Notes under the pieces: generated by a model
The model's database searches: none
Told to the model about the DNA's origin: nothing
What the model saw: only the letters and a program-made list of their open reading frames with translations
Shown: piece after piece, positions 1 through 50,823 of the stretch
Numbering within the stretch: the stretch's first letter is position 1
Layout: every line of letters begins with the position of its first letter
Position numbers and translations under genes: made by a program
DNA from: a virus
Taxonomy: Duplodnaviria; Caudoviricetes
Direction: 5' to 3' (one strand)
IMG/VR virus record: IMGVR_UViG_3300020011_000226
Span: 1-64,000 of that record
DNA: 64,000 nt

Positions 1-390
1 CTATTCGTAGTCCTTTTGATGGAACGAGGCTTCAAAGAGCTTCGTTCCTTTGTTTTTGGTGGAATAGTAGACGTAGCGGAAGCTATAGCCCGCCTCCTTG
101 TAGAGTCGCAGATGGGCGCTGTTCTTCACCTGTTCCAGCAGCAGCTGTCTCGTATTGCTGCCGTTCACGTAGGCAGAGTCGTCAATTGGGCCTCTCAGCG
201 AGTAAGCATAGCTGATGGTATGCGTCGCCTTGTCGAAGGTCATGCTGTCCATGATGACGTCCTTGCCCACAGGGGTAGGGCAGTGTTTCTCCGTATATTC
301 CCTGGCCTCGCGCGCGCAGCGGTCCTCCAGCGATTCCTGACAGGCTGCCAACAAGAGTACAGCCATTACGCTCCATATTATCTTCTTCAT
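1..390 (-). CDS. Host (Bacteroidales/Prevotella-like) hypothetical lipoprotein
   Basis: MKK start, hydrophobic signal peptide and lipobox LLLAAC. Visibly more GC/CpG-rich than the rest of the window. ORF track starts it at 402 (TTG); ATG at 390 is more likely. Confidence 0.75.
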   Translation of the reverse strand: MKKIIWSVMAVLLLAACQESLEDRCAREAREYTEKHCPTPVGKDVIMDSMTFDKATHTISYAYSLRGPIDDSAYVNGSNTRQLLLEQVKNSAHLRLYKEAGYSFRYVYYSTKNKGTKLFEASFHQKDYE

Positions 391-412
391 AGTCGTTCCC
401 AATTAATAATAC

Positions 413-438
413 AAAAGAGAGCCATGATAGCTCTCTTT
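413..438 (-). terminator. Intrinsic terminator downstream of the tRNA 3' fragment
   Basis: AAAGAGAGC-catgata-GCTCTCTTT perfect stem with T-run on the minus strand. Confidence 0.75.
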
Positions 439-448
439 CCTGGTGCTT

Positions 449-472
449 TGCGGAGAGTGAGGGATTCAAACC
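449..472 (-). other. Displaced tRNA-Ser-like 3' end (T-arm plus acceptor strand); putative prophage att junction
   Basis: Minus strand reads GGTTTGAATCCCTCACTCTCCGCA: T-loop, T-stem, acceptor strand and discriminator G. There is no 5' half of a tRNA, and it sits at the host/phage composition boundary. Confidence 0.75.
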
Positions 473-536
473 GTGAGGAGTCCCAAAGTGCTCACCTTCC
501 TTTTATTTATTAGAGCTTTTATAATTTGCTGTTTTG

Positions 537-602
537 TGTACAGATGGGTGCTGTACATAATACGTACATAATCTACTGATTTGAGTGTACTGAATCAGTA
601 CA
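537..602. repeat. GTAC(A)-core repeat cluster next to att; candidate integrase arm-type sites
   Basis: TGTACA at 537, GTACATAAT direct repeat at 553 and 564, palindrome TGTACTGA-a-TCAGTACA at 586-602. Confidence 0.5.
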
Positions 603-689
603 TAGAGGTGTGGTCTCTGGGATGGATGTATATAATAAATTTTGTCTGTTGCATATTGATTTTGTTTTTAGGATGAAATGTTCTGATTG

Positions 690-697
690 CAAAGATA
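690..697 (-). promoter_or_regulatory. Bacteroidetes -7 promoter box pointing outward toward att
   Basis: TATCTTTG(C) on the minus strand matches TAnnTTTG. Confidence 0.5.
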
Positions 698-795
698 CAA
701 TATATTTTTGAGAAGATAGTAGGTTGCTATCCTTAAATAAAATTAAAAAGGCTGGGAATTTAAGAATAAAGTTAGGTTATTTAAATGAAATTGTT

Positions 796-803
796 TATCT
801 TTG
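796..803 (+). promoter_or_regulatory. Bacteroidetes -7 promoter box for the first phage operon
   Basis: TATCTTTG in an AT-rich intergenic region 130 bp upstream of the first phage ORF. Confidence 0.55.
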
Positions 804-932
804 TGCCAGATTTCCTAAGGTTTAATATTAGTGTGTAACTTGTTGAAAAATAAATAAGTAAGAAATAACACTAAAGTTTTACTTTAAATTGGATTGTAAA
901 GAAACAATTATTAACAACTAAAGGATAACAAT

Positions 933-1160
933 ATGGCAACAGAAATCAAGATGTCCAAAGAAGACTTAAGATGGCAGGCTGAAAATGATGCCAGGACAAT
1001 GGCCAATTATCAGGAAATTATGCAGGATAAGGCTCGTATGGCAAGAGCTATCAAGGAAGCCAATAGGCAGGCTCAAGACTTGACCAAGAGGGCAAGTGTC
1101 ATGAAGAGTGCTGCCAATGTCAAGGCTAAAGGTGGGAGTATAAGTAGAAAGAAGAAGTAA
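933..1160 (+). CDS. Small basic hypothetical phage protein
   Basis: 75 aa ORF, K/R-rich tail with KAKGG motif, AGGATAAC leader. Confidence 0.7.
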   Translation: MATEIKMSKEDLRWQAENDARTMANYQEIMQDKARMARAIKEANRQAQDLTKRASVMKSAANVKAKGGSISRKKK

Positions 1161-1186
1161 TACACCTTATTATATATATATAGGCT

Positions 1187-1615
1187 ATGACTAACCAAGA
1201 GAAACTACAGGATTATGACTCAGAGCCTGTATTCTATTGTACAAGGTGTTACTCCCTCAAGGTGAAGTATGAAGAGGCTATTGATGCTGAGTGCTGTGGG
1301 GAGTGTGGATGCTCAGATATTGCCAGTTGCAGTATAGAGGAGTGGGAGACTAAGTTCCAAAAGAGATATGGTAATAAATACACCGTCAAGAGTGAAGACC
1401 CCAGAACCTCTCCTATTTTCAAGATGACACTGGAGAAGCTGAAGACAAAAGTGTATGAGATGCCTATCTGGAAAAACATCATCCATGCCCTCTATCCCAA
1501 GTTTCCAGAAGGACTAAGCAAGGCAGACTCTTTATTACTACTATTCGACAAGCTCATCAAAGACAATAGGCTGGATGACTTGAAGATGTTACTATATAAG
1601 ATAAGCAGACAATAA
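1187..1615 (+). CDS. Zn-ribbon (CxxC...CxxC) phage protein
   Basis: CTRC and CGEC motifs in the N-terminal half. Confidence 0.65.
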   Translation: MTNQEKLQDYDSEPVFYCTRCYSLKVKYEEAIDAECCGECGCSDIASCSIEEWETKFQKRYGNKYTVKSEDPRTSPIFKMTLEKLKTKVYEMPIWKNIIHALYPKFPEGLSKADSLLLLFDKLIKDNRLDDLKMLLYKISRQ

Positions 1616-1635
1616 ACAATTAAAACAGGATAACT

Positions 1636-1980
1636 ATGGAAAAAGAGATTAAGACAAAGCAAGTGAAGATGGAAGCAGCAAAGGATGCTCCATTTAACAA
1701 GAAGGTACAAGAACCTAACCAGAAGCTGACCTATGAGCAGTTGAATCAAGCCTGTGCTGAAATGTCACAGCAGCTTCAGAACCAGAATGCTTACATCCAG
1801 AAAATGCACCAGCAAATGCAGGAGATGAACTTTGCCTTACAGACTAAGAGGATGGACTACTTGTTCAAGGTAGTAGAACTTAAAGACAGATTCAGCAGTG
1901 ACTTTGTTATTATGTGTACTGATGAGATAGAGCAGTCACTGACTATTCCTGAAGAACAGAAAAAGACAGAGGAGAACTAA
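1636..1980 (+). CDS. Hypothetical coiled-coil phage protein
   Basis: 114 aa Q-rich helical ORF in operon context. Confidence 0.7.
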   Translation: MEKEIKTKQVKMEAAKDAPFNKKVQEPNQKLTYEQLNQACAEMSQQLQNQNAYIQKMHQQMQEMNFALQTKRMDYLFKVVELKDRFSSDFVIMCTDEIEQSLTIPEEQKKTEEN

Positions 1981-1982
1981 TT

Positions 1983-2429
1983 ATGAGTGATGTGTTAGGA
2001 TTAAAAGCTGGAGATGGGAAGAAGCTGCCAAAGCCTAATAACATCATACCAGTGGCAACAAGCCTTGATACTGACTTCTTCAAGAAGTGGTGCAGTTTCT
2101 TGAGGTTGTTTGTCAAGATGACAGACAGGGAGATGGATGTGGTCTCCTGCCTTCTCAAACAAAGATGGGAGCTGTCAAAAGTCATCCCAGACCAAGCCAT
2201 ACTGGATACTGTGCTTATGAGTACAGACACTCAGAGGAAAGTCATAGAGGAATGCAACTTGTCACCAGAGCACTTCTATGTGGTCATGAGTAACCTCAGG
2301 AAGAACAAGGTGGTCATAGGCAAGGTAATTAACCCAAGGCTGATTCCCAATATTAGGAAGGATGACAATGGGGTATTCCAGTTGCTGATACTCTTCAAAG
2401 ACCCTAATCCCCAAAAGGCAGATGCTTAA
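1983..2429 (+). CDS. Hypothetical protein, possible winged-helix DNA-binding protein
   Basis: MTDREMDV...ECNLSPEHFYVVMSNLRKNKVV resembles a wHTH pattern (by eye). Confidence 0.5.
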   Translation: MSDVLGLKAGDGKKLPKPNNIIPVATSLDTDFFKKWCSFLRLFVKMTDREMDVVSCLLKQRWELSKVIPDQAILDTVLMSTDTQRKVIEECNLSPEHFYVVMSNLRKNKVVIGKVINPRLIPNIRKDDNGVFQLLILFKDPNPQKADA

Positions 2430-12447: not shown

Positions 12448-14688
12448 ATGGATAACATTGTATTTAACAGGTGTCAGACACCTTTGGAGGAACTGCATCT
12501 TAAAGACTATCCCCAAGAGGTGCAGGAGAATTTCTGGGACTTTCTGAATAATGTACCATTCATAAGATGGATGGTGTCCCCTAACAGACCATTGATTTCT
12601 GAGTTGCCAAGGGATGAGTATGGGAGAGCTATCATAGATGTCACTCATCCTCCTATCTTGGAAGGCACTGACTATTTCAGGCAGACCGCTATGAAGTGGC
12701 AGGAGGAAGGAAAATACACCAACTTGAAGCCCAATGCCAATCCCCAGAGTGATTTTGGAAAGTGGTTGAGAGAGGAGAGAAGGAGAGGGTGGGAAGGCTA
12801 TCTTAATCCTGAGACTGGTATGTGGGTTACTGGAGATTACTACTGGGTATTAAACTATTGCCCTATGCACCTTGTGGTCAAGAGAGAGGATGGTCTTGAG
12901 ATGCGTACTACCAGACATCCTAACTTTTGGGATGGCCAGTTCTTGGCCTCCCACTATATCCTTCAAGCCAGACAGAAAAAGCATCATGCTGCCTACCTTG
13001 CCTCGCGTGGTAAAGGTAAAACCACACTCGGTGGAGGTATGCTGGCAAAGAGGTTTATCATAGGAGAATTTGAGAATAATAGAAGAGAAATACAATGCTT
13101 GGTAACAGCTGCTGATAAAACAAAGCTTATTGGAGTCAACCAAATTCTTTCTGTCTTTATTGATAATATAGACTTTACTGCTAAGAATACTCAGTTTGCC
13201 TCTCATAGACTCAAGAGCAGTGTGCAAGAATTAACATGGCAAATGGGCTACAAGAAGTCTGGTTCAGATGTACAGTATGGTAGTAGGAATTCTGTCCAAG
13301 GTATTGTCTCAGGTGTCAATCAAGATAAATTGAATGGCTCCCGTGGTGTACTTTATATCATTGAGGAGGCAGGTATCTTCAAAGACCTCAATGACCTATA
13401 TGGGCTTATTAGACCTTCAGTAGAACAAGGCTCCTCAGTGTTTGGAGAAATACTGCTTTACGGCACTGCGGGCAATGAACAATCAGACTTTACTGCCTTC
13501 TCTGAGATGTTTTATTCTCCTGATGGTTACAACCTTTACGGCTTGGAGAATGTCTTTGACAAGGAGGGTCAAGGCAGGAAACAATGCTGTTTCTTCTATC
13601 CTGTCTATATGAACTATGATGATAGCTGTATAGATAAAGATGGCAACAGTGATATAACCAAAGCTCTACTGATGATTTGTGCAGACAGATATAAGGTGAA
13701 GTATGGTAGTACAGATATTAATGCTATTGCTAAACGTATCTCCCAGTATCCTGTTACTCCTCAAGAGGCTATTATTAGAAGCAGAAACAACATGTTCCCT
13801 GTAACAGAACTTAATGAAAGGCTTAATCAGATTGACAACAATCCAGAAGAGTACAGTGATGTTTATGTTGGGGACTTAGTTCAGAGTGGAGGAACTGTTG
13901 AATTTAAGCCTACTGGTGATATTCCTATCAGAGACTTTCCAACCAAGGATAACAAGGTGACAGGAGCTATTGAGATTTATACTATGCCACAAAAGAATTC
14001 TGAAGGCAAGATACCTGTAGGAAGATATATAGCTGGTGCGGATCCCTATGATAATGATGTGGCTGATACTATGTCATTAGGTTCTTTCTTTGTGCTTGAC
14101 CTATGGACTGATAAGATAGTAATGGAGTACACAGGCAGGCCTATGTATGCAGATGACTTCTATGAGATATGCAGGTTAGGATGTCTTTTCTATAAAGCTA
14201 CCCTTCTCTATGAACAGAATAAGAAAGGTTTGTATCCTTATTTCAGGCAAAAGAACAGTCTTCACCTTCTGGCTGATACCCCAGAATATCTCGTAGACAA
14301 ACAGCTTGTCAAGAGTATAGGCTATGGTAACACTCGCAAAGGTGTTAATACTACAGTTCCTGTGAAAGACTATGGCCTTAGATTGATTAGAGACTGGCTA
14401 TTAAAACCAGTGCCTAAAACAGAAGTTGACTCAGAAGGCAATGAAGTGGAGGTAACTATCTCTAATCTATATAATATAAGGTGTAGAGCATTGCTGAAGG
14501 AGTTAATACTTTGGAATCCAATTATCAATGTAGACCGTGTGATGGCTATGTGTATGCTTATGATTTACAGAGAAGAGAAGATGATACTCTATCAGGGAGA
14601 TGTGAAGAAGGCAGAGCATATACCAACAGGAATAGAGGCAGATAAATATTGGGACAAAAACTATCCTGGGAAGAAAAAGAAGTGGTAA
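12448..14688 (+). CDS. terL: Terminase large subunit
   Basis: Walker A ASRGKGKT, Walker B YIIEEAG, YGTAG coupling motif, nuclease GADPYD and C-terminal DRV; crAss-like length (746 aa). Confidence 0.9.
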   Translation: MDNIVFNRCQTPLEELHLKDYPQEVQENFWDFLNNVPFIRWMVSPNRPLISELPRDEYGRAIIDVTHPPILEGTDYFRQTAMKWQEEGKYTNLKPNANPQSDFGKWLREERRRGWEGYLNPETGMWVTGDYYWVLNYCPMHLVVKREDGLEMRTTRHPNFWDGQFLASHYILQARQKKHHAAYLASRGKGKTTLGGGMLAKRFIIGEFENNRREIQCLVTAADKTKLIGVNQILSVFIDNIDFTAKNTQFASHRLKSSVQELTWQMGYKKSGSDVQYGSRNSVQGIVSGVNQDKLNGSRGVLYIIEEAGIFKDLNDLYGLIRPSVEQGSSVFGEILLYGTAGNEQSDFTAFSEMFYSPDGYNLYGLENVFDKEGQGRKQCCFFYPVYMNYDDSCIDKDGNSDITKALLMICADRYKVKYGSTDINAIAKRISQYPVTPQEAIIRSRNNMFPVTELNERLNQIDNNPEEYSDVYVGDLVQSGGTVEFKPTGDIPIRDFPTKDNKVTGAIEIYTMPQKNSEGKIPVGRYIAGADPYDNDVADTMSLGSFFVLDLWTDKIVMEYTGRPMYADDFYEICRLGCLFYKATLLYEQNKKGLYPYFRQKNSLHLLADTPEYLVDKQLVKSIGYGNTRKGVNTTVPVKDYGLRLIRDWLLKPVPKTEVDSEGNEVEVTISNLYNIRCRALLKELILWNPIINVDRVMAMCMLMIYREEKMILYQGDVKKAEHIPTGIEADKYWDKNYPGKKKKW

Positions 14689-16090: not shown

Positions 16091-17617
16091 ATGGGTAAAT
16101 TAGGTAAGTTTCAAAGTTTGGAATTTGACAGCTGGGGTAAGACTACCAAGCTGAATCATGTTCAGCAGTTCTTCCTGGGTAATGCCTATACAAGGTATCC
16201 CCTTCAGGCAACTAATCTGACTGTGCAGCTTCTGGCCTTCCATAAGGGCAAGACACTGGACACCTTCCTGTCACAGTTCCCAACCAAGAAGTTTGAATCA
16301 GATGATGAGTACACATGGGATGTTATTGGTTCAATGACCAAGAACCTTCCTCTGGTGGAGGCAAGGACTCTCAATGGTACTGTAGTGGCAGCTGATGCTG
16401 ACAATGTAGGTATTAATGGCGAACCTTTCTATGTGGTATTTGATGAGGATTTGTTTGCTGATGGTGCTATTATCGTAGGTGAGCTGAATGAGATTTATCA
16501 GCTGAGAATCCTTGGTGATGGTTATCGTGAGGGTACTAACATCCGCTACAAGGTACAGCTCTTTGGTAATGTAGATGGTATGCCTGCTGAGCAGTTGCAG
16601 CCTGGTAAGAGGTTCTCTAAGGAGTATGCTCCTGTTGAGCGTGAGTTCAGCCGTATGGTTGATGACATCACCTTCTCCAGTCCTATTGCCATGCGCAATG
16701 AGTTCTCTACCATCCGTATGAAGCACAAGGTTTCTGGTGCTCTGGTCAAGAAGAAGATTGCCTTTGGTGTTCCTGTTGAGCAGACTGATGCCAATGGTAA
16801 GACCGTCGTGAAGAACTTTGACATGTGGATGCATTATGAGCAGTGGGTACTTGAGCAGCAGTGGAATGCAGCCAAGAACAAGCTGATTGCCTATGGTAGG
16901 TCTAACCGCAACAAGAATGGTGAGTATCTTGACATTGGTAAGTCTGGTGAGGTTATTCGCTCTGGTGCAGGTCTGTTCCAGCAGATGGAGGTAAACAACA
17001 CTGAGTTCTACAACACCTTCTCCCTGAAGAAGATTGAGGATGCCTTGTTGAACCTCTCAGCAGCTAACCTGGACTACAACAACCGTGTATTTGTACTCAA
17101 GACTGGTGAGCGTGGTGCTGTACAGTTCCATAAGGCAGCTCTTGATACTGTAAGTGGCTGGACTGCCTTCACCACTAATGCAGATGCAATTGGCATGGTA
17201 AGGAAGGTTAACTCTCCAATCCATGAGAATGCTCTGTCTATTGGTGCTCAGATTGTGGAGTACAAGGCTCCTAATGGCGTGACTGTCAAGGTAGATATTG
17301 ACCCCATGTATGACGATCCTGTACGCAATAAGATTATGCACCCCAATGGTGGCCCTGCTTATTCTTATAGGTATGACATCTTTGACATTGGTACAATGGA
17401 GCAGCCCAACATCTTCAAGGTAGCCGTTAATGGCATGGAAGGTGATATTACTGGTTACCAGTGGGGTATGCGTAATCCTTTCACAGGTGCTATTGGCAAT
17501 GACAACATGAGCTATGATGAGGATAGTGCAATCATCCACAAGCAGACTACTACTGGTGTATGTGTACTTGATCCCACAAGAACCATGAGTATTATTCCCG
17601 CTGTATTGCAGGGCTAA
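16091..17617 (+). CDS. Major capsid protein (crAss-like, HK97 fold)
   Basis: 508 aa, strongly biased high-expression codon usage, DDEYTWDV, MRNEFSTIR and GAGLFQQME motifs, position in head module. Confidence 0.85.
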   Translation: MGKLGKFQSLEFDSWGKTTKLNHVQQFFLGNAYTRYPLQATNLTVQLLAFHKGKTLDTFLSQFPTKKFESDDEYTWDVIGSMTKNLPLVEARTLNGTVVAADADNVGINGEPFYVVFDEDLFADGAIIVGELNEIYQLRILGDGYREGTNIRYKVQLFGNVDGMPAEQLQPGKRFSKEYAPVEREFSRMVDDITFSSPIAMRNEFSTIRMKHKVSGALVKKKIAFGVPVEQTDANGKTVVKNFDMWMHYEQWVLEQQWNAAKNKLIAYGRSNRNKNGEYLDIGKSGEVIRSGAGLFQQMEVNNTEFYNTFSLKKIEDALLNLSAANLDYNNRVFVLKTGERGAVQFHKAALDTVSGWTAFTTNADAIGMVRKVNSPIHENALSIGAQIVEYKAPNGVTVKVDIDPMYDDPVRNKIMHPNGGPAYSYRYDIFDIGTMEQPNIFKVAVNGMEGDITGYQWGMRNPFTGAIGNDNMSYDEDSAIIHKQTTTGVCVLDPTRTMSIIPAVLQG

Positions 17618-35207: not shown

Positions 35208-38200
35208 ATGGCAAACAATACAGGCTTAAGATTTAATCCGCTGACAGGCCTTGGTGGCTGGAGAGACAATCAACAGCAACAGAGCGTTCCTACAGTAGCA
35301 GAAGACTATATGAACCAATTCACCATGCCTATACCAGAATGGAAACCAGAGCGGCTACAAAAAGCAAGAACTTTTGTAGCAGATGTCAATAGTGGCAAGT
35401 TTGACAATTGGAATCCTATGGAAGATTATGACAGATGGCAAGGTGGTCTTAGAGGATTGTCCAATGATGAGCAGGCCATTTGGGAGTCACAGAACTATGC
35501 CAAGATACTTGATCAAAGCGAAGAATGGAGAGATAGGCTGTGGAGAAACCAGCAGTTTGTTAATACCTTTGGCATGGAAAGATTCCAGCAAACACCTGAC
35601 AAGAATGAAAGAGACAGAATGTATGAAGACTATCTGTTAGGTGATGCTATTGGTAAGAAGTATGGCTCTAACAGTAATCTTGAACAGCTAATGTCTCTCA
35701 CCCCTGAAGGTAAGAAAGAACTTCTGAACTCAGACTATAAAGCAAACTGGCAACTTAAACAAAGTGACCAAGCAGCAGAGAACAAGGATTGGGAAGACTA
35801 TACTTTAGGTGAAAGATGGAATGCTGTTAGTTCTGATGTGAGCAGCTATGGTATGGCAGGATTAGGTCTGGGTACTACCATTGGTGCAGCCTTTGAAGGT
35901 GTAGGAAGTATTCCTGGTGCAGCCATTGGTGGTCTGATTGGTGCAGGAACTGGCTTGGTTATGGGAGTTCTTAATCCAGAGGATGCAGCAAGTACTAATG
36001 CCATGCAAAGAAGGGCTGAGAATGATGATATTCTGAATAAGATAACTGTTGCTGATAATGAAAGAAAGAAGGTTGATAGTCAAGATTCCATCAATGATTT
36101 ATGGTCAGCTTACACCAAGGCATATAGTCAGGGACAGATTACCTCAGAACAGGTGGATGAGATGTTTGACAATCTGGCTCTAAGTGGTAAGAGGACTGCT
36201 ACTGATAAACTTGGGAATACCCAAGAATATGACTATCATGGCTCCAATTACTATACCATGTTCAAGGATGAAGATGAGTTTGAGCACTTTGGTACTGTAG
36301 ACAAGCTAAAGTATATTGCCCAGAGTCAAGTATTAGGACAGAAATATGGTCAGGGTACTGCTATCAATATATTGGAGCAGGACATGCAGAACTATGTGTC
36401 AGACAATCAAAGTAGCTGGCAATGGGCAGGTAATTCCTTGAAGAATGTATGGGTAGGCGGTGTAGCCAACCTTGCCAATAATGTGACAGCCCTTGGTGCA
36501 TTGAGTGCAAAAACTTTTTATGGAGAGGAAGGATTGGCTGAGTATCTGAAAGGTAAGGATGCATCTGGGGATGGTACAGACAACTGGTTTAACCCCCAAT
36601 ACTGGAACAAGGTGGATCAATACAACACTTTTGATACAGATGCTATTGCCAAAGCAGACCAGAATGGTGGTATCTCCATATATAATAATGTGGTTACCCC
36701 AGGTACTGAAGGAGACTTCTGGAGTTGGAATACTTTAAATGAAGCTGTGCGCATGAATAAATTCGCATGGTCAGACTTACTGAAGAACCTCTCATTGGGA
36801 AGAATGGTAAGAGGTGCTACCAGACTTGCGGGTGGTGTAGAACTTGCCCCTGGAGTATTAGCAACAGAATCTCCAACGGCGGCACAAGCTATCAACAAGG
36901 TAGGTGCTCTTGGTGTAATGAATGCCTCTTCATTAGGTATTGATGCAGCCTATGGTATGCAGACTTATGAAGAAGTACTCAGACAAAACAATGAGAAACT
37001 TGACCAGATTATAGACAAAGATACTGAAACAGAAGTACAAAGAAGGCTGCAAACCAAGGAGGCACAAGCTGACTTCCGTAGGTTTGTAGATACTGAGAAT
37101 GCCCGTAGGAAAGCAAGAGCAGGTGAAAGAGGCAGTTATATTGCTGTAGATGAAGATAAGGCCTTTGTAGATTATACTGAGTATCTGAGAAAGCAAGTTA
37201 GACAGGAACAAGAGGCCTTACATCAAGAAGACAGGCAACAGGCTGAGAATGATGCAGCAAATGCCTATGCTGTGGATGCTAGTATTGAACATTTAAGAAT
37301 GGCTACCACCAATGGAGTGTTCAAGAGCTATTTGTTTGACAAAGGCACATTAAATGCCATAAGGAAGAACAATCCTTATGTGGCCACTACTACTAAGAAT
37401 GGTCAGTATGCTCTGGCTAAGAATGCTACAAGAAATGCAGCACTTAAGCAAATGGGCGTACAGGTATGGGGTGGATTCCACTCTAACTACTTTGACGATG
37501 TAACAGTAGGTTTTGCGGAGGGCTTTGGACTACAGGACTATAATAACTACCTGCTACAGAAATACAATCCAGCAGCCTATGGAGCTGTTATTGACGATTA
37601 TGTGAATCCTTTTGTTGCTGGTATAGCTGGAGCTACCAATGCTATGACAGAGAAGAGAAGTTTCTTGGATGGTGGTATTGGAGCCTTAGGAAGCTTCATG
37701 ACTGTATCTCCAAATGTCAATGGTATGATTAGTCATAGGCAAAGAATGAAAGAGCTTGCAGAAGCTAATAAAAAGCAGGGAACTGAGAAGCAAGGTATCT
37801 CTACAGCAGAATGGATAAGTGACTTTGTGAACAATCCTGTATTGCAAGCAGTAGCAGATGCCAAGCAGAAAACCAGGATGACTGAGGCAGAAATAAAAAG
37901 AATTAATGATATAATAAAAGAGTCTGGCTATTCGTTGGATAATATAGTGGAAACTGCATCAGCACTGAATCAGAAAGTCATAGCAAGAGAAGGAACTTCC
38001 CTCATAGAAGCTGAGGATGCAAAGGATAGAGAAGCCTTTGCACTGGCAAGTACTTTACTCAGTCTAAGGAACTCAGGTGTAGTAGCTAATGCACAGGCAG
38101 AACCTAATAAAGCCAACTGGAGCAGGAAGAAGAGAGCTGCTGCTACTATAGGCAGAGGATTTAATATGCTGCTTGGTGTTCCTATGTTCAATGAGGCAGA

Positions 38201-41200
38201 ATCCAGCTATACCAATGCTATGCAGAGCCTGCAAGATGCTGCAAGTATTGGGGAAACCAGTGATGAAGCCACTGTTCAGAGACAGCAGGAATTAGTAAAT
38301 ACCTTCTTAGGTCTTGACCAAAACAAGAATGTACTGGCTGATATGTCTGAAGAAGAAAAGGCTGGGTTTGCTCAAGAGAGATTGAAGAAGAATGCCGCCA
38401 ATCTGTTGGACATAATGGATAGGACAGAGAAGCTTCAGAAGAAATTTGAAAATTCTATTCAGGCACAGCTCCATCCTGACTTGAAGCAGCAACTTATGTA
38501 CCAATATGTACTGGACAACAGATGGAAGATCAGATTATCAGAACTGGAAGAGCAGATTACTGGTGAACAAGGTACTCCTGAGTATGAGGGTAGTCATGCT
38601 GCTATTGCCAAATATGGAAGTATGCAAGGCCATGAGAGGACCAAGAAGGCACAGGAGAAGAGAGTGCAGGCAGCTCAAACAGCCTATGATAAAGCAGCAA
38701 AAGAAGCTGATAAAGAGAATGATCCTACTAAGAGTATTGTAGAGAATGCTCGTCAGAAGGCTGTCAGAATGTGGAAGAAAAAGACTGCTGCCATCAACCT
38801 CAAAAAAGAGCAGGATGCACTGTCCCAGATTAACAATGAAGAGGCTGAACTGAAGAGTGCCTTGGAAAGTGAAGCACCTGTTATCACAGCAGACCAAATA
38901 CTGAGACTGAATCCCAATGACAGATACAGGATGCTGGATGACTTCTACAGGAATGACTATTCAGAGGCACAGCAGAGGGAAATTGACTTAGCTAAGAACA
39001 AGTTGATAGAGGATGGTACTTCTATCAATGAGGCTATGGAGAAGGTCAAGGATGCTGCCATACTGAGTGACAGGATTCAGGACAATATGGAAGTTGCTAA
39101 GAGGATTATGCAGAATCCTGTAGAGGCCAATCAAATGCAGCAGGCTGTCATAGAGAACAGGAGAAGGGCTATAATAGACTATTTCAATGATAAGATTGTT
39201 GCAGAAGCTTTTAATGACTTTCAAGCTGATCCTGAAAGCACTTTATCCAAAGAGAAGATAGCTCAGAAGGCACATGGATATTCTACTGCTGTACTTAATG
39301 GTATGCTCAGAGCTATTGAGAAGGAATTGGCAAGAGCAAGAAAGGCGGATGAACCCTCAGATAAGACTTTATCCACTATGGAGGATGGTATCAAGGAAGT
39401 GCTTGGTCAGAGGGATGAGCAAATGAAGGAAACTGTTGATTTAGATAGCTATATCAGGAAGACAAAGAGTGTGCCTCATACAGAGGTAACAACATCTCCT
39501 GCTGGTGCTCACTATGAACAAAAGACAGGTGACTATGAGGTTACAACTGTTCCTACTCAGGTAACTACTGACAGAGATTTGTCAGAGAATGACAAGAAAC
39601 TGCTAGACTATGCTATTGACTATGCAGCAGAGAGAGGTATCCCTGTGGATGAACTGAGTCAGAGAGTACAGGATGAAGATTTCAATAATTATGTAGAGCA
39701 AAGGAATCATGCTTATGAGTTGGCTATAAATCCTATGACAGGAGAAGTTACTGAGACCAATGTCGCTACTGTTGATAATAGGGCTAATCAGGTTAGTCCT
39801 GAGTATATGTCTGGCTTGGTGAATGATGTGGTGGATGCTTTCAAGGCTAACAAGGATAAGGTAGCTCAAGCCAAAGCAGACAAGCCTACAGCAGCACAGC
39901 CTGAAAGTGTAGCTACTAATCCTGTAGAGACTAAAGGCAGTAAGGCAGAGGCTACAAGGGAAGAAGAGGTAAGACCTGATGAGGTAGACCCAAATGACCC
40001 ATTTGGATTAAAGAAAAAGAAGACTGCTTCTGTAACACAGCAGCCTACACCACGGCCTGCCAGTCCAACACCCGCCAATAGTAGGAATGCCCAGATTATG
40101 GAGGATGCATCTACTTTAAACAGTAAGATACTTGAAGATGTTGGAATATTATTGGATGAGGTTGATAAACTTCCTATGCAGGAACAGACTAGAGACAAGC
40201 TGAAGGATATTATTTCAGCTAATCTAAATAGCAGAACCTTTGGTAATATCCAAGAGCTACAGAACAGAATCATGGAAGATGCAATGGTAACCTCTCAGGC
40301 AGAAGCTCCTCAGATTGATGCCAAGGCTACTGCACTGGCAGGGCTGAACATTGGTGATATTAAGAGCAGAAGGGCTGGTCAGGCAGGAACTGAACAAGCA
40401 TCTGGCATACCTGCTGGGGAAATTAATAACAACCCCAACCCCCTCCCCCCAACTCCTCTTGTCCTGGAGTCCAGGGATTTGGATATGCTGATGAACTATC
40501 CTGTTTGGAAAAGCTATATTGAAAAGCATGGAGTCATCCCATTCCTTCAGAAACTCTCCGATGCATGGAATAAAGAGGCAGAGGCTTGGAGGCAGACTAA
40601 TAAGCAGGGATTACTGCATCAAAGTCAGGTAGTATTCCTTTATGACCCAGCATTGGCAGAAGCTGTAAAGAATAACATCGAGGAGAATGGCGGATTTTAT
40701 AATCCAGAAATCTCTTCTCCTATTCTTATGGCCTTAGAGGTTACTGATAAAAACAAGCATTTGGTAGATAGTGAGAGTCAGCTTATTAGCATCAAGGACA
40801 AGACTGATGGTAAGACCAAACAGTATCAGGTGATAGGAGTAATGCCCAGCAGTGAGATAAGTACAGGAGAAAGTGATGCTATGAAGGCTACAGCAGCCAG
40901 AATGTCTGCACTGAGGAATAGAATCAATTTTAATGATACTGATACCCATGTACTGAGATATGCTCCCCAAAATGATACTGGCAAATACAATGGTACTCCA
41001 ATACGCACTAATATAGAAAAGGTAAGTAGTCATACAGAGGAAGACAGAATTCCTCATGCTACTGAGGAGACACCAAGAACAGGTGTTCAGCAGCTGATGG
41101 ATGAAAATCTTAATTCTGCTACTGAGAGCTTCATCAGTGCTACTGAGGAAGAACAGCAGGCCTATGATGCTGCTAAACAAAGAGGCTTATCCGAAATCAG

Positions 41201-43415
41201 AAAGACCAACCTCTACAAGAAACTGCGCAAGGCATTTATTGATAGGCTCTTTAAGAGAGAAAGAAAGGCTCAGAATCCTGATGATCCCAATAGCAAGGAA
41301 CTGAACTTCAATCTTCAGAAGGGAACTAATGACACCTATCCTAAAATTGTACTGGTCAAGAAAGTCAGTGAGACACTAGATAAGAACACTGGCAGGCCTA
41401 TCATTGATATTCTGAGGGAAACAGATGGCACTGGTAGCAATGCTCAAGAGGTTATTGAAAGCAACTCGAGGTTTAGAAGGCTGTTCAATCAATTGAGCAA
41501 ATTGAAGTTGAGCAGCGGTCTGTTTAATGCACAAGGAGATGTGGTTAATAGGACTGCCTATGACAAGGCAGTAAGAGACTTTGAAGAGAGTGTTAGAAAG
41601 ACTATTGATAATAATCTGCATGTAGATGATATGACTGTCAGAGTGGATATTACTGAGGGAAGACCTGATGAAAAGACAGTCCATATCAATGTCTACTCAG
41701 GGGATGTCAACAATAATAACAACCTCCTCACCACCCTCACCACTTCATACACTGGTCAGGTAAGTCAAGCTGAATACGCTCCCTTCCTTAAAGACTTGAT
41801 ACTGGATAATGAAGGTAATACAAGATCAGGTCTTAACGATTCAAGGTATGAGAGAGTAAAGTGGCAAGTAAACTATGAGGATGCTGAGACAGCCCATGAC
41901 AGTACTAAGACTCCTGTAGAAAGGAAGGCAGCAACAGATAATCTGAATGACCTCTATGATGATGGTATCTTTGAGATGCAGGTTACTAAGCTTGCTTATC
42001 CCTCAAGAAGTATAACTGTCAGCATTAACCCTGCTATGAAAGCCAAACTGTATCCTGAGAGAACCAGGGAACCAGAAGCTCCTATTGGTAATCCTACAGG
42101 TATAGTGGCTAGCTTTGAAGCTGAGAGTGCTGCTGGTAAGGTGGATGGTGATACTGGAATGATGACTGAAGCTCCTACCAGAGAAGGTATTCTCAATGGT
42201 ATCCCAAGGGCTATCATGGATACTATCAATAGGATGTTGTCAGACTCTAAGAGCAGGCAACTGACTGATGATGGCAGACACTACAGCATTGGTGGTCAAT
42301 TGTGGTCAAGAGTCACCTCCATTAAGTATGCTCTTGAAAACATGGGTCAAAGATTTAATCCTGCTAATGGTTGGGCATTACCCTCATCCTTGTTAGGTAA
42401 TAGCCTTGATGAATTTGGTAGGGACGTGTTTACTGGGGCCTTTGACTCTATGGATGGAACCAAGAGAATGGCAGAATTTGAAGGGTATGATAACTCAACA
42501 GCAAAAAATTATGACCAAGTGTTCATGGCTCTCAAGGCATTTGAGTCAAGACTTGCTGGTAAAGGTCAGGTGGTTATTGCTACTGGTAACAGGGAGAATC
42601 CAGGTCACATTACAGCTAAAGGTACTTTGGATGTACAAGTTAAAGGAGAACAGGGCATAGAAACTAAGAAGGTCAGAGTAGCAGGAACACTTGATGTCTT
42701 AGCTATTGATGATAAAGGTAACCTGCATATTTATGACTTTAAAACCCATCGAGGGGCCTTTGATGCCGCCCATGCTGTAGAGAAAGGTTATGACAGGCAG
42801 CTCAGTATGTATGCCAAGTTCTTGGAAGATGAATATGGTTTGAAAGTAAAGAGCATCAATATTATTCCTATCAAGGTTGATTATCCTACACCTTCAGGCA
42901 GAGACAATGAAGGTAATGCTATTCAAGGTGCTCAGAAGACTTACAAACAGGCAAGGCCTGGCAGCAACCAGTTAGAGGTGAAAGAACCAACTGCTGATGA
43001 CAGTAAGTTTGAACCCTACAGGGGAGCTAACTTCCAAGTTGAAGCAGAGTTTCCACTTACCAGACTGGATAATGCAGCATTGGTAGCCAGCTTTGACAGG
43101 ATGAGTGATGCTGAGAAAGAAGCTATTGTAGAGGCTATTCAAGACCAAAGTGAAAGTCCTGCTACAACTGGAGAGGTAAAGGCTGGAGACATAGCCAGTG
43201 CCAAGCCAGACATTGTAGAGGAGACTGCTGAAGAAGAGGAAGAAGGTGGTTTCTCTCGTAGAGGCAGCAGGTTTGGTTTAGGCAGAAAGAAAGCCGCTAC
43301 TCCAGCACCATCCGCTGAGGAAACAGCCCAAGCCATCAATCCAGAAGACAAGGGAGGTCTACTCAACAGACTCAAGGATTTAGAAAATGCCTGTGGTGGC
43401 CCAAAGAAAAAGTAA
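35208..43415 (+). CDS. Giant virion cargo protein with glycine zipper and C-terminal PD-(D/E)XK nuclease-like domain
   Basis: 2735 aa; SRVTSI...AGTLDVL...IYDFKT...RQLSMY RecB-type nuclease motifs near 42300-42850. Confidence 0.75.
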   Translation: MANNTGLRFNPLTGLGGWRDNQQQQSVPTVAEDYMNQFTMPIPEWKPERLQKARTFVADVNSGKFDNWNPMEDYDRWQGGLRGLSNDEQAIWESQNYAKILDQSEEWRDRLWRNQQFVNTFGMERFQQTPDKNERDRMYEDYLLGDAIGKKYGSNSNLEQLMSLTPEGKKELLNSDYKANWQLKQSDQAAENKDWEDYTLGERWNAVSSDVSSYGMAGLGLGTTIGAAFEGVGSIPGAAIGGLIGAGTGLVMGVLNPEDAASTNAMQRRAENDDILNKITVADNERKKVDSQDSINDLWSAYTKAYSQGQITSEQVDEMFDNLALSGKRTATDKLGNTQEYDYHGSNYYTMFKDEDEFEHFGTVDKLKYIAQSQVLGQKYGQGTAINILEQDMQNYVSDNQSSWQWAGNSLKNVWVGGVANLANNVTALGALSAKTFYGEEGLAEYLKGKDASGDGTDNWFNPQYWNKVDQYNTFDTDAIAKADQNGGISIYNNVVTPGTEGDFWSWNTLNEAVRMNKFAWSDLLKNLSLGRMVRGATRLAGGVELAPGVLATESPTAAQAINKVGALGVMNASSLGIDAAYGMQTYEEVLRQNNEKLDQIIDKDTETEVQRRLQTKEAQADFRRFVDTENARRKARAGERGSYIAVDEDKAFVDYTEYLRKQVRQEQEALHQEDRQQAENDAANAYAVDASIEHLRMATTNGVFKSYLFDKGTLNAIRKNNPYVATTTKNGQYALAKNATRNAALKQMGVQVWGGFHSNYFDDVTVGFAEGFGLQDYNNYLLQKYNPAAYGAVIDDYVNPFVAGIAGATNAMTEKRSFLDGGIGALGSFMTVSPNVNGMISHRQRMKELAEANKKQGTEKQGISTAEWISDFVNNPVLQAVADAKQKTRMTEAEIKRINDIIKESGYSLDNIVETASALNQKVIAREGTSLIEAEDAKDREAFALASTLLSLRNSGVVANAQAEPNKANWSRKKRAAATIGRGFNMLLGVPMFNEAESSYTNAMQSLQDAASIGETSDEATVQRQQELVNTFLGLDQNKNVLADMSEEEKAGFAQERLKKNAANLLDIMDRTEKLQKKFENSIQAQLHPDLKQQLMYQYVLDNRWKIRLSELEEQITGEQGTPEYEGSHAAIAKYGSMQGHERTKKAQEKRVQAAQTAYDKAAKEADKENDPTKSIVENARQKAVRMWKKKTAAINLKKEQDALSQINNEEAELKSALESEAPVITADQILRLNPNDRYRMLDDFYRNDYSEAQQREIDLAKNKLIEDGTSINEAMEKVKDAAILSDRIQDNMEVAKRIMQNPVEANQMQQAVIENRRRAIIDYFNDKIVAEAFNDFQADPESTLSKEKIAQKAHGYSTAVLNGMLRAIEKELARARKADEPSDKTLSTMEDGIKEVLGQRDEQMKETVDLDSYIRKTKSVPHTEVTTSPAGAHYEQKTGDYEVTTVPTQVTTDRDLSENDKKLLDYAIDYAAERGIPVDELSQRVQDEDFNNYVEQRNHAYELAINPMTGEVTETNVATVDNRANQVSPEYMSGLVNDVVDAFKANKDKVAQAKADKPTAAQPESVATNPVETKGSKAEATREEEVRPDEVDPNDPFGLKKKKTASVTQQPTPRPASPTPANSRNAQIMEDASTLNSKILEDVGILLDEVDKLPMQEQTRDKLKDIISANLNSRTFGNIQELQNRIMEDAMVTSQAEAPQIDAKATALAGLNIGDIKSRRAGQAGTEQASGIPAGEINNNPNPLPPTPLVLESRDLDMLMNYPVWKSYIEKHGVIPFLQKLSDAWNKEAEAWRQTNKQGLLHQSQVVFLYDPALAEAVKNNIEENGGFYNPEISSPILMALEVTDKNKHLVDSESQLISIKDKTDGKTKQYQVIGVMPSSEISTGESDAMKATAARMSALRNRINFNDTDTHVLRYAPQNDTGKYNGTPIRTNIEKVSSHTEEDRIPHATEETPRTGVQQLMDENLNSATESFISATEEEQQAYDAAKQRGLSEIRKTNLYKKLRKAFIDRLFKRERKAQNPDDPNSKELNFNLQKGTNDTYPKIVLVKKVSETLDKNTGRPIIDILRETDGTGSNAQEVIESNSRFRRLFNQLSKLKLSSGLFNAQGDVVNRTAYDKAVRDFEESVRKTIDNNLHVDDMTVRVDITEGRPDEKTVHINVYSGDVNNNNNLLTTLTTSYTGQVSQAEYAPFLKDLILDNEGNTRSGLNDSRYERVKWQVNYEDAETAHDSTKTPVERKAATDNLNDLYDDGIFEMQVTKLAYPSRSITVSINPAMKAKLYPERTREPEAPIGNPTGIVASFEAESAAGKVDGDTGMMTEAPTREGILNGIPRAIMDTINRMLSDSKSRQLTDDGRHYSIGGQLWSRVTSIKYALENMGQRFNPANGWALPSSLLGNSLDEFGRDVFTGAFDSMDGTKRMAEFEGYDNSTAKNYDQVFMALKAFESRLAGKGQVVIATGNRENPGHITAKGTLDVQVKGEQGIETKKVRVAGTLDVLAIDDKGNLHIYDFKTHRGAFDAAHAVEKGYDRQLSMYAKFLEDEYGLKVKSINIIPIKVDYPTPSGRDNEGNAIQGAQKTYKQARPGSNQLEVKEPTADDSKFEPYRGANFQVEAEFPLTRLDNAALVASFDRMSDAEKEAIVEAIQDQSESPATTGEVKAGDIASAKPDIVEETAEEEEEGGFSRRGSRFGLGRKKAATPAPSAEETAQAINPEDKGGLLNRLKDLENACGGPKKK

Positions 43416-48447: not shown

Positions 48448-49290
48448 TCAAGCTGTTGCTGAGAGATTGTACCTTCTGTCATAGAGCTGTTCAAACTGTT
48501 CCTTATTATCAGATATTGACATTATCGCAGTAACTTCACTGATAATTCTTCTGAGGTCTTGCCTGCCAACACTTTCAGTTAGATTTCTGTGGAGCTGGTA
48601 CTTCCAGTTGCCACTGTCATTCTTACCAGTCTTCTCCTTCATGGCTTGAAATACCCCGTCAGGAAGCCTGTCATAGATAAGGTGGGCTGTCAGATAGCCT
48701 ACTCTCAGAGGCTTGGAATGGCCTTCTCTAGGCTGAATATTGTATATGCGGTACAATTCCCTGTAGAATTCATCGCTGAATGTCAGCTGCCATTTGGCTA
48801 CCTCATCGGAAATATACGCTGATAGAATCTTCTGAAGTTCCCCCTTGTCCCTATCCTCCTGATAGCCTGTGGCTTCATCAATGAGTGCTACCAGTCCAAG
48901 CTTGGCAAAAGATCGCATCAATATCTCACACTGGTCTGCCACCAATTGTTGTTTTGGTTTCAGCGTAAAATTCTTCCTGATTTCCAGCATAGCATCACAG
49001 ATGTCCGTCAGGGCTTCTGCCTTGTAGCAATATACTTTTCTGTCTCCTTGCCAGCATACTATAGGAACCAATGCTCCTGATGGAATTTGTGTGGCGGCAT
49101 TGCCCAGTGCCTTTTGCTTGAAGAACTGGTTGATCTTGGTTCCAGCCCTGTTACCTTTGGTAATCTTTAGGGCCTCCTGCATTTTACTTCCTGAGAGAAG
49201 TCTTGTACCATCTTCTGTTACATAACATGGAATGACATTACCTGCCAGATTGAGTTCGCCACTGTTTTTAATTCGATTGAAATTTTCCAT
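48448..49290 (-). CDS. P63C-domain protein (phage regulator / antirepressor-like)
   Basis: IPCYVTEDGTRLLS...LGLVALIDEATGYQ..R...LQKIL..YI...WQLTFSDEFY signature. Confidence 0.8.
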   Translation of the reverse strand: MENFNRIKNSGELNLAGNVIPCYVTEDGTRLLSGSKMQEALKITKGNRAGTKINQFFKQKALGNAATQIPSGALVPIVCWQGDRKVYCYKAEALTDICDAMLEIRKNFTLKPKQQLVADQCEILMRSFAKLGLVALIDEATGYQEDRDKGELQKILSAYISDEVAKWQLTFSDEFYRELYRIYNIQPREGHSKPLRVGYLTAHLIYDRLPDGVFQAMKEKTGKNDSGNWKYQLHRNLTESVGRQDLRRIISEVTAIMSISDNKEQFEQLYDRRYNLSATA

Positions 49291-49485
49291 AATTTTAAAT
49301 GTTTAATTATTGAGTTATGTAAAAAATGTCGCATGCCTAACTATCAGAGGTTTAGATAGTTACGTTGGAATTTATAGTAAAAATACCTCAAAAACACCCT
49401 AAAACTGGTAATTTTTGTCGCACATTTGCTAACTGATTGATTACCAGATATTTATATAAAAAGTAAAAGAGGCTACATAGCCTCC

Positions 49486-50061
49486 CTATTTCTTCATCTT
49501 TTTCCTTCTGCCCTTTGTTGTTATTTGGTTGTAGTATTGTTCTTCTAGCTCATTAGTCCATGTTGAAGGAGATTTCTTTTTAGTCTTTGGTTTGGGTTTT
49601 GGTAATTCTTTCTTCCTCTTTTTATATTCACTTCTGGCCATCTTGTCACAGATTTCATTCCAGACATTTCCATCATGACCCTTAACCCACTCAAAACTGA
49701 CTTGAATGTTCTTGGTGTTACATATGTCCCAGTACCTTCTTATTTGGTCAAGGTTCTCAGTTGCTGTCCATCTTCCCGTAAGTACATTAATGCTATACTG
49801 GGAGTCCGAATAGATTCTAACAGATGAGTCCTGAGGAAGAGAGTTTACTATACTCATGATTGCCAACAATTCCATTCTGTTATTGGAAGTTCCAACAAAG
49901 CCTTTAGAAGCTCTTTTCACTTCTTGGTTATTGGAGTCAAAGATAATATAAGCTGCTCCTCCTGGTCTTTGGGGATTGAGGTTGTCACAGCTTCCATCAG
50001 AGAAAGCTATGAACTTTTGGGTTTCTTTCATAGGTTGTTTTTGGGTTTTACTTTTTACCAT
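49486..50061 (-). CDS. rnhA: Ribonuclease HI
   Basis: FSDGSC, GGAAY, SNNRMELLA, YSDSQY, N.D, WVKGH.G..WNEICD.MA motifs. Confidence 0.9.
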   Translation of the reverse strand: MVKSKTQKQPMKETQKFIAFSDGSCDNLNPQRPGGAAYIIFDSNNQEVKRASKGFVGTSNNRMELLAIMSIVNSLPQDSSVRIYSDSQYSINVLTGRWTATENLDQIRRYWDICNTKNIQVSFEWVKGHDGNVWNEICDKMARSEYKKRKKELPKPKPKTKKKSPSTWTNELEEQYYNQITTKGRRKKMKK

Positions 50062-50076
50062 TTAAATCATACCATG

Positions 50077-50823
50077 TTAGTATGAGATAGCCTGAGAGAT
50101 AGAAGATGAGAGGGTGTAGGTGTTTGGATGTACTATACAGAGCTTGTGGTTAGTGGTAAATGTGAAGCCTGGGATGTCCCTGTGATTGACATGGGGAGCA
50201 TAGAACCATTCAAAATGCTGTTCTTTTTCTACCCAAGCTTTAGTTACTGCAAATTCTACCACCCGTTGCACTGTTCTGATACAGCACCCAACCTCTTTTG
50301 CTATCTTCTCCAAACTTAATCCCAGCTCTTTATACTGTTGATCTGCACTTTTCAGTCTACCCTGTTCAACTAAATCCTTCACTTTCCGTCGCACAGTCCT
50401 AAACTCCTTGGGAGAATTTGGATTGTGTCTGGCCTGAAGCAAGTGTTTTAGGTAATCTTTATTGTGCTGTATTCTCATGAATATAAATGACTGTACTGAC
50501 CTGTACGCTGAGAAAAATGTACTGAAATCCATCTCATCTATTCTGATATTCCGATTAGTAGTATGAGATGATACCTTATTAATAATAAGCACTCTGTCCT
50601 TAGGTGCTCCCTCAAAGTGGGCGAACCCATATTTCAGCAGCCAGTCCTCATATCTCTGAGCTGTCTTGTGTGATATTCCAGTTATCTGACACAGTTTGTT
50701 TGTACTGTAGTGATGAATCCTTGAGGATTTCAGTTTGTCTTTTAGCATGAGAGTCAGCGCAAGGCACTTTTGAAGCACCCTGTCCTGCCTAATCTGCGTT
50801 ATATACCTTCTCCTCAAATTCAT
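50077..50823 (-). CDS. Double-HTH basic protein, putative replication initiator (Rep-like)
   Basis: Two HTH-like segments (STNKLCQITGISHKTAQRY; SLEKIAKEVGCCIRTVQR) and C-terminal PNTY; function is inferred. Confidence 0.5.
   Translation of the reverse strand: MNLRRRYITQIRQDRVLQKCLALTLMLKDKLKSSRIHHYSTNKLCQITGISHKTAQRYEDWLLKYGFAHFEGAPKDRVLIINKVSSHTTNRNIRIDEMDFSTFFSAYRSVQSFIFMRIQHNKDYLKHLLQARHNPNSPKEFRTVRRKVKDLVEQGRLKSADQQYKELGLSLEKIAKEVGCCIRTVQRVVEFAVTKAWVEKEQHFEWFYAPHVNHRDIPGFTFTTNHKLCIVHPNTYTLSSSISQAISY

Follow-up and report, generated by a model that had tools for sequence, protein, structure and literature searches.

The 64,000-nucleotide stretch of DNA analysed here (the window) is the first 64 kb of the 117,540-bp IMG/VR virus record IMGVR_UViG_3300020011_000226, and its left end is very probably the left attachment junction (attL) of an intact prophage of about 117.4 kb, which belongs to the Steigviridae branch of Crassvirales (crAss-like phages) and lies in a bacterial tRNA-Ser gene. 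IMG/VR classes the record as a provirus with a CheckV completeness of 100%; a minus-strand host gene has its stop codon at position 1 of the record, and position 117,540 is an ATG inside a minus-strand tyrosine integrase gene. The junction itself, the empty bacterial site (attB), the joined phage site (attP), an intact integrase, the crAss identity of the phage and a lineage of related phages have each been observed directly. A known mechanism is thereby resolved to the base pair, except for the right junction (attR), in a family of phages that had not been expected to use it.

Attachment sites at a tRNA-Ser gene

The DNA at the left edge of the window is bacterial. A first-pass annotation of the window had pointed to a GC-rich host lipoprotein gene followed by a terminator, and both are present as described: the open reading frame (ORF) has a lipobox and a guanine–cytosine (GC) content of 0.51, as against 0.39 in the adjoining phage DNA to the right, and a hairpin follows (Table 1). 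Homologues of the lipoprotein, at no more than 74% identity, are found in metagenome-assembled genomes (MAGs) of rumen Prevotella/Prevotellaceae, in which tRNA-Ser(CGA) is located upstream of the homologue on the same strand, with a gap of only 73 nt in one case (L007). An identical lipoprotein is encoded in at least 23 host contigs, adjoining the YebC/TACO1 and PheT genes. The host species is absent among GTDB representatives, for which the best match is 74% for the lipoprotein and 92% for PheT. Because the hairpin is downstream of the tRNA but still upstream of the lipoprotein gene, it is the terminator of the tRNA, and its sequence is identical downstream of the intact tRNA in the empty-site contigs L057-L066.

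What remains of the tRNA at the junction is its displaced 3′ end, which includes the T-loop, the 3′ half of the T-stem, the 3′ strand of the acceptor stem and the discriminator base, plus one base. The displaced piece had been recognized before, as 24 nt at 449-472; its tRNA part is in fact 23 nt (450-472), and beyond it the sequence stays identical to the phage site as far as position 440. The 89-nt tRNA-Ser(CGA) in L012 and L057-L066 ends in exactly this piece, and by our own estimate such an exact match of 23 nt to a tRNA-Ser 3′ end is far beyond chance. The T-loop had likewise been read correctly as TTTGAA, but taken for a deviation from TTCGAA: all host-type copies of tRNA-Ser seen (12/12) have TTTGAAT, which is the native T-loop of tRNA-Ser(CGA) and no degenerate variant. 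ARAGORN detects no whole tRNA at the junction or anywhere in the window, and the sole tRNA that it finds in the record, tRNA-Arg(TCT) at about 100.8 kb, is unrelated to the attachment site.

The layout of attL in the window is host DNA (1-439), a common core of 33 bp (440-472) and the phage arm from 473 onwards. The core comprises the terminal 23 nt of tRNA-Ser(CGA) and a trailer of 10 nt. Its limits follow from the comparison of the sites: the match of attP to the window begins at position 440 and extends rightwards, and that of attB ends at position 472. The bacterial site was found by exact lookup of the lipoprotein, which retrieved host contigs of up to 127 kb (ENA) from other samples. As anticipated, the empty locus could be compared directly: eight of these contigs (L057-L060, L062, L063, L065 and L066), having the same flank, carry an intact 89-nt tRNA-Ser(CGA) and, after it, AAAGCACCAG, the hairpin seen in the window and the lipoprotein gene. 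In L057 a Big_2/DUF4957 gene adjoins the tRNA. Another study yielded a contig (X7) that follows window positions 1-472 with two mismatches and then continues into the tRNA body CCCGATACCCGAAA, being attB as well. The phage site was found by exact lookup of the integrase protein in other assemblies. Two contigs, L002 (JGI 3300011005) and L003 (ENA ERZ3810914), each join record positions 117540..114370 to window positions 440..2063 at 100% identity via 261 extra bases (1625-1885 of L002), and a third, L036, also unites both prophage ends at 100% identity on each side. Scans of viral contigs for att junctions returned only the known attP contig. Thus attB, attP and the junction in the window share exactly the 33-bp core demanded by the Campbell model, in agreement with the original suggestion of a true prophage.

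The 5.65-kb attP contig has four copies of an 8-bp motif, TTATGTAC, all in the att region, two per arm and in one orientation, for a chance expectation of 0.19 (0/200 shuffles reach 4); the motif is kept in related phages, and its copies are candidate arm-type binding sites for the integrase. The P′ arm and leader are partly conserved in 12 related phages, and homologues of the first phage gene adjoin the integrase gene in the same number of relatives. The P arm contains a hairpin with a 12-bp stem followed by a T-run.

Taken together, integration would proceed as follows. The phage integrase would recombine the phage attP, in which the 33-bp copy of the tRNA-Ser(CGA) end and trailer is flanked on both sides by TTATGTAC arm repeats, with the attB of the host, a rumen Prevotellaceae bacterium. 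The crossover would strand the original tRNA 3′ end (window 440-472) beside the tRNA terminator and the lipoprotein gene, and at the far end the 66-nt 5′ part of the host tRNA would be joined to the phage copy of the 3′ end, which would restore the tRNA. There the phage-borne hairpin with its T-run could act as a replacement terminator of the rebuilt tRNA.

A second, decayed tRNA-Ser 3′ end, GGTTTGAATCCCTCACCTTTCAC, is also present in attP (L002:1635-1657), at a distance of 43 nt from the working core towards the integrase. Its sequence is similar to the ACCTTCC acceptor variant, which forms the core of the relatives L044, L046 and L056, and its position, directly before the P-arm hairpin, matches that of their core. 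A tandem second core is present in L042 and L043, too. The decayed copy may be a fossil of att-site retargeting via aberrant excision.

Table 1. Features of the window and of the end of the record; positions are those of the window unless the record is named.
Feature	Position	Strand	Remarks
Host lipoprotein gene	1..390	-	129 amino acids (aa), lipobox LLLAAC, from translation; bacterial DNA left of the prophage
tRNA-Ser intrinsic-terminator hairpin	414..438	-	9-bp stem: AAAGAGAGC, 7-nt loop, GCTCTCTTT, then T-rich run
attL common core, 33 bp	440..472		minus strand GGTTTGAATCCCTCACTCTCCGCAAAGCACCAG; common to attB, attP and attL
Displaced tRNA-Ser(CGA) 3′ end, 23 nt	450..472	-	reads GGTTTGAATCCCTCACTCTCCGC
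P′ arm and intergenic leader before first phage gene	473..932		100% identical to attP contigs
Two direct copies of TTATGTAC	553-560, 564-571	-	candidate arm-type integrase sites on P′ arm, putative binding
First phage gene after junction, 75 aa	933..1160	+	no assigned function; also called in L002/L003
Terminase large subunit (TerL)	12448..14688	+	phrog_6681 at 5.7e-106
crAss-type major capsid protein (MCP)	16091..17617	+	PF23898 Crass_capsid 3e-179, positions 1-495 of 496
Giant 2735-aa protein	35208..43415	+	homologous to virion RNA-polymerase-type proteins of Steigviridae
Tyrosine integrase, last gene of record	record 116,476-117,540	-	beyond right edge of window

Does the joined attP sequence come from a free phage? 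Two tandem prophage copies in one chromosome would yield the same P-O-P′ sequence at their junction, and neither of the two attP contigs is long or well covered. Such a double lysogen is nevertheless exceedingly unlikely as the source of the attP contigs, and would itself still need integration. Fifteen IMG/VR contigs encode integrases 51-77% identical to that of this phage, and 12 of the 15 have the joined arrangement of left-end gene homologues, intergenic region and integrase, most of them with a tRNA 3′ piece. Three relatives are complete or near-complete genomes of 108-123 kb with Crass_capsid; the 123-kb genome, which has the joined arrangement, bears direct terminal repeats, and two others, near-complete at 108-116 kb, have no host flanks. 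Furthermore, L002 differs by 5% from the prophage in the portal region and therefore represents a separate strain.

Is the junction in the window that of a lysogenic cell, or was it made by the assembler? A free phage (attP) and an uninfected host (attB) could have been joined through the core into a chimera without any lysogen, as the 33-bp repeat is perfect and common to both sites. In the likely source run, the Logan contigs, assembled with k = 31, break at the core: the contig with the host left flank and the one with the P arm end in it, and the phage contig starts from it. They cannot show which arm joins which because k is shorter than the core, and no independent attL contig was found in other collections. 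What argues for a genuine junction is that a second run of the likely source sample, a shallow one, gave a contig of 185 bp which covers window positions 310-494 and reads through host, core and P′ arm with no mismatch and no branch; the read support recommended earlier for this junction is thus available from this one contig, and from nothing beyond it. The depths of the host contig (14.5) and the 20-kb phage contig (17.2) in the source run are close. A third contig, of 50-200 kb, carries the phage gene gp142 and is probably the parent of the record; IMG/VR made its provirus call within a parent contig of that size. In a relative, L047, the layout at the same tRNA is the complementary one, of attR type: host DNA with a GC content of 0.55-0.58, an intact tRNA-Ser(CGA) and the integrase gene. 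Ordinary reads are longer than a repeat of 33 bp, and so is the final k of the usual metagenome assemblers, which would also speak against a chimera. We therefore consider assembly error very improbable and retain integration at tRNA-Ser as the explanation of the junction.

Two further observations concern the host locus. In one host contig, L061 (3100-3360), the gene for the identical lipoprotein has no tRNA-Ser upstream and a different neighbouring sequence; therefore the host locus itself is polymorphic. The variable segments between tRNA-Ser and the lipoprotein gene in related MAGs, L004 (5.4 kb) and L014 (2.8 kb), were considered as an integration hotspot, but contain ordinary large ORFs, for which no scan against protein families was made, and give it no support.

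The integrase and neighbouring genes

A tyrosine integrase had been predicted beyond the right edge of the window, and it is indeed the last gene of the 117,540-bp record. The restored tRNA-Ser and the direct repeat that were to accompany it do not appear within the trimmed record: no second copy of the core and no terminal repeat is present in its 117,540 bp (the best match is a 12-mer attributable to chance), because the record is trimmed inside the integrase gene. The full integrase has 381 aa, its conserved start (MNNKLPQITF...) lying 27 codons past the record end (L002:1805-1885) and being kept in six relatives. It matches phrog_1 at 5e-38 and has the domain order PF17293 (arm-binding), PF13102 (core-binding) and PF00589 (catalytic).

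Alignment to solved recombinases and to the 15 relatives places the catalytic set at S249, R274, K276, H328, R331, H354 and Y364. The box I position holds S249 instead of the first arginine, and R274 supplies an arginine two residues before the lysine; R274, K276, H328, R331, H354 and Y364 are all present, and the set is conserved across the 15 relatives. The first arginine is in box I in two of these (CL/MRYSDL, DSIKTS), with serine at the second place, and in the xRxK motif in 13 (CLSYSDL, xRxKT), and never in both. Such an either/or placement of the first catalytic arginine has been described for the IntCTnDOT integrases of Bacteroidota (PMC8138268), and by its domains and residues the protein is predicted to be a heterobivalent tyrosine recombinase of the IntCTnDOT type. 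Next to the integrase gene are, in order, a 59-aa ORF, a DUF6549 gene, a 102-aa HTH_17/excisionase-like gene and the portal gene. The 102-aa HTH_17 protein is a candidate excision factor.

A real integration event could still have left a cryptic prophage, fixed in its strain and producing neither excision nor virions any more, and in this respect it may be noted that neither a repressor nor a clear excisionase has been identified. However, the large ORFs are all open, including those of 2735, 2574, 1596 and 1460 aa, the catalytic residues of the integrase are intact and completeness is 100% by CheckV. Contigs of attP form are 100% identical to both prophage ends in two other assemblies. In addition, the att site is empty in most host contigs, and the insertion is therefore recent and polymorphic. 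A decayed, immobile element is hence scarcely probable at all, and an intact prophage remains the preferred reading.

Several points nevertheless weigh against an intact, functioning prophage. The rebuilt tRNA and attR are not seen in the record, which stops 27 codons inside the integrase gene; attR, together with a repressor and inducibility, would be expected of the prophage. No CI-like repressor was found by HTH_3 or Peptidase_S24 match, and the excisionase-like protein scores below threshold for both HTH_17 (22 bits) and TIGR01764 (17 bits). As for the junction, the bridging 185-bp contig has only 22 nt that are phage-specific and comes from the same sample as the record, and the pairing of arms is unreadable in the source-run contigs. 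No other copy of attL or of the P-arm/core junction was found in two metagenome scans, blanks that carry little weight. Finally, Crass_capsid was searched for in 401 sampled species genomes of the genus that contains the host's closest MAG relative, and only one (G245) had it (G245:C203:22968-24437, L086; E 1e-209), in a copy for which integration is not shown; hence integrated copies are rare in sets of MAGs. G245 was tried as an integrated case and rejected: the best integrase matches in this genome have 35-36% identity and lie on other contigs, which gives no evidence of integration.

Apart from the integrase region, a P63C-domain protein (3e-23), an RNase H (2e-25) and a double helix-turn-helix protein are encoded in a row at window positions 48448-50823 (minus strand). 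P63C domains are known in antirepressor-like phage proteins, and this region may bear on lysis-lysogeny control.

Identity of the phage

A Crassvirales-type virion gene set had been noted directly after the junction, and the MCP and TerL genes bear this out (Table 1); the portal protein matches phrog_6547 at 6.8e-138. The MCP is 60% identical to those of crAss001, IAS virus and cr106_1. TerL identity is 54.7% with Pamirivirus faecium cr116_1, 40-48% with other Steigviridae and 23-34% with other families. In tblastn, the 2735-aa protein matches Steigviridae phages only, at 24-28% identity, and its stretch 1799-2649 is 27.8% identical to the ‘RNA-polymerase subunit’ of Kolpuevirus ‘frurule’. A maximum-likelihood tree of TerL was built from 19 sequences (five Steigviridae, five Suoliviridae, four Intestiviridae, one Crevaviridae, FpV4 and three integrase-bearing phages), a partial Cellulophaga TerL being left out. 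In this tree the present phage and two integrase-bearing relatives form a 100/100 clade within a 100/100 Steigviridae clade, with Pamirivirus as sister (support 88/87). The phylogeny recommended earlier, together with MCP identity, thus places the phage inside Crassvirales, within the Steigviridae branch. No match to the integrase domain PF00589 was found in the five classified Steigviridae genomes searched (5/5).

Comparison with known systems

It is a standing question how crAss-like phages can remain highly abundant in the absence of obvious lysogeny; host phase variation, carrier states and phage-plasmids are among the published answers. Crassvirales have been said to show very low rates of integrative lysogeny (PMC10983915), and the four ICTV families of crAss-like phages have been thought lytic, with only incomplete prophage remnants of the epsilon group in Parabacteroides (PMC11054128). 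The premise of the first-pass annotation that characterised crassviruses do not integrate is thus broadly that of the literature, but integrase-bearing crassviruses have been noted computationally: in a 2026 mouse catalogue, integrases and excisionases are enriched in Intestiviridae and Zeta and rarely detected in Steigviridae (PMC13503771), and a pig study predicted 12 crAss-like prophages, without att sites (PMC12454387). These earlier hints of lysogeny consist of gene content, incomplete prophages or a plasmid state, none of them with attB, attP and junction for one phage and none of them on Steigviridae, and our literature search found no att-level description (attP, attB, attL) for Crassvirales.

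With Steigviridae such as Pamirivirus faecium cr116_1, PhiCrAss001 (Kehishuvirus) and IAS virus, the present phage has in common the portal, virion structural and giant RNA-polymerase-type proteins, a genome around 100 kb and a Bacteroidota host, and its TerL is 47-55% identical to theirs. It differs from them in being 15-18 kb larger, in its host from the Prevotellaceae of the ruminant gut and in the presence of an integrase gene, attP and an HTH_17 gene, which on the integrated map lie between the leftmost genes and the portal gene. PhiCrAss001 is described as being without lysogeny genes (bioRxiv 10.1101/354837).

The closest parallels to the integrase are outside Crassvirales. The IntCTnDOT group (IntDOT of CTnDOT and the integrases of NBU1 and NBU2) has the same domain order, the alternative first arginine and hosts among Bacteroidota, a likeness of domains and residues; its members serve conjugative or mobilisable elements, whereas here a 117-kb virion-forming phage is served. 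IntN2 of NBU2 targets the 3′ end of tRNA-Ser genes, and its insertion disrupts the tRNA (PMC6692515). In contrast, attP of the present phage carries the full tRNA 3′ end and should rebuild the tRNA. The nearest phage integrases in GenBank, 37% identical over 97% of the length, are those of LoVEphage, BI-TP1 and PV4-TP1. LoVEphage and similar phages are inducible temperate phages of gut Bacteroidales (PMC12629997); they have genomes of about 71 kb, are not crAss-like and share the integrase alone with the present phage, which suggests that pool as the source of the integrase module in the crAss lineage. Lactobacillus phage mv4 integrates at tRNA-Ser with the same arrangement of a tRNA 3′ copy in attP, a displaced end fragment and an integrase gene beside att (bioRxiv 10.1101/2023.11.06.565760), although its virion type and host phylum are unrelated and its integrase is of a different subgroup.

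For one phage of the best-studied crAss family, the bacterial site, the phage site and the junction have now all been recovered, and integrative lysogeny in Crassvirales is therefore directly testable. A defined 33-bp site with its integrase is also provided for Prevotellaceae, a group with few genetic tools. Moreover, provirus calls for crassviruses in catalogues can be real, and not binning artefacts.

Integrase-bearing relatives and possible lifestyles

To a broader reading, in which a whole rumen branch of Steigviridae, the family of PhiCrAss001, is truly temperate, we give an even chance. Such phages would have acquired a Bacteroidales-type integrase and would live as inducible prophages of Prevotellaceae, with repeated retargeting of attP, fossil cores and possibly plasmid-like carriage. 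The range of retargeting may then include tRNA-Ser(CGA) in two acceptor-stem variants, one or more further 3′ ends of Ser type and, possibly, tRNA-Lys and tRNA-Val. Two crAss-like relatives of 116 kb and 108 kb contain a whole tRNA, tRNA-Lys(CTT) or tRNA-Val(CAC), between the left-end genes and the integrase gene (L048:9699-9772 and L050:9651-9726, respectively), which could be a full-length attP copy of the target or cargo.

An ORF of 153 aa at record 104673-105134 (plus strand; L040:4673-5134) matches RepL (PF05732) with 22.8 bits, the cut-off being 20.3, so that a RepL-like gene and an integrase coexist in this phage. RepL is the plasmid-type gene behind the phage-plasmid argument for Carjivirus communis (PMC10983915), and the present phage resembles Carjivirus communis and the crassviruses listed with it in having such a gene. 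Because a RepL-like gene is kept in these genomes, integration and plasmid-like carriage may coexist in one crassvirus.

In the same part of the record (103244-106063, minus strand), three paralogous ORFs of about 94 aa (103244-103528, 105262-105546 and 105782-106063) have no Pfam match, and several homologues of them are present in the relatives L052 and L056. In a 108-kb relative, TerL is a single open frame of 1156 aa (G003:C1:16328-19783, L069), in which an intein- or homing-element-like insert of about 390 aa lies between the positions corresponding to residues 530 and 531 of TerL of the present phage.

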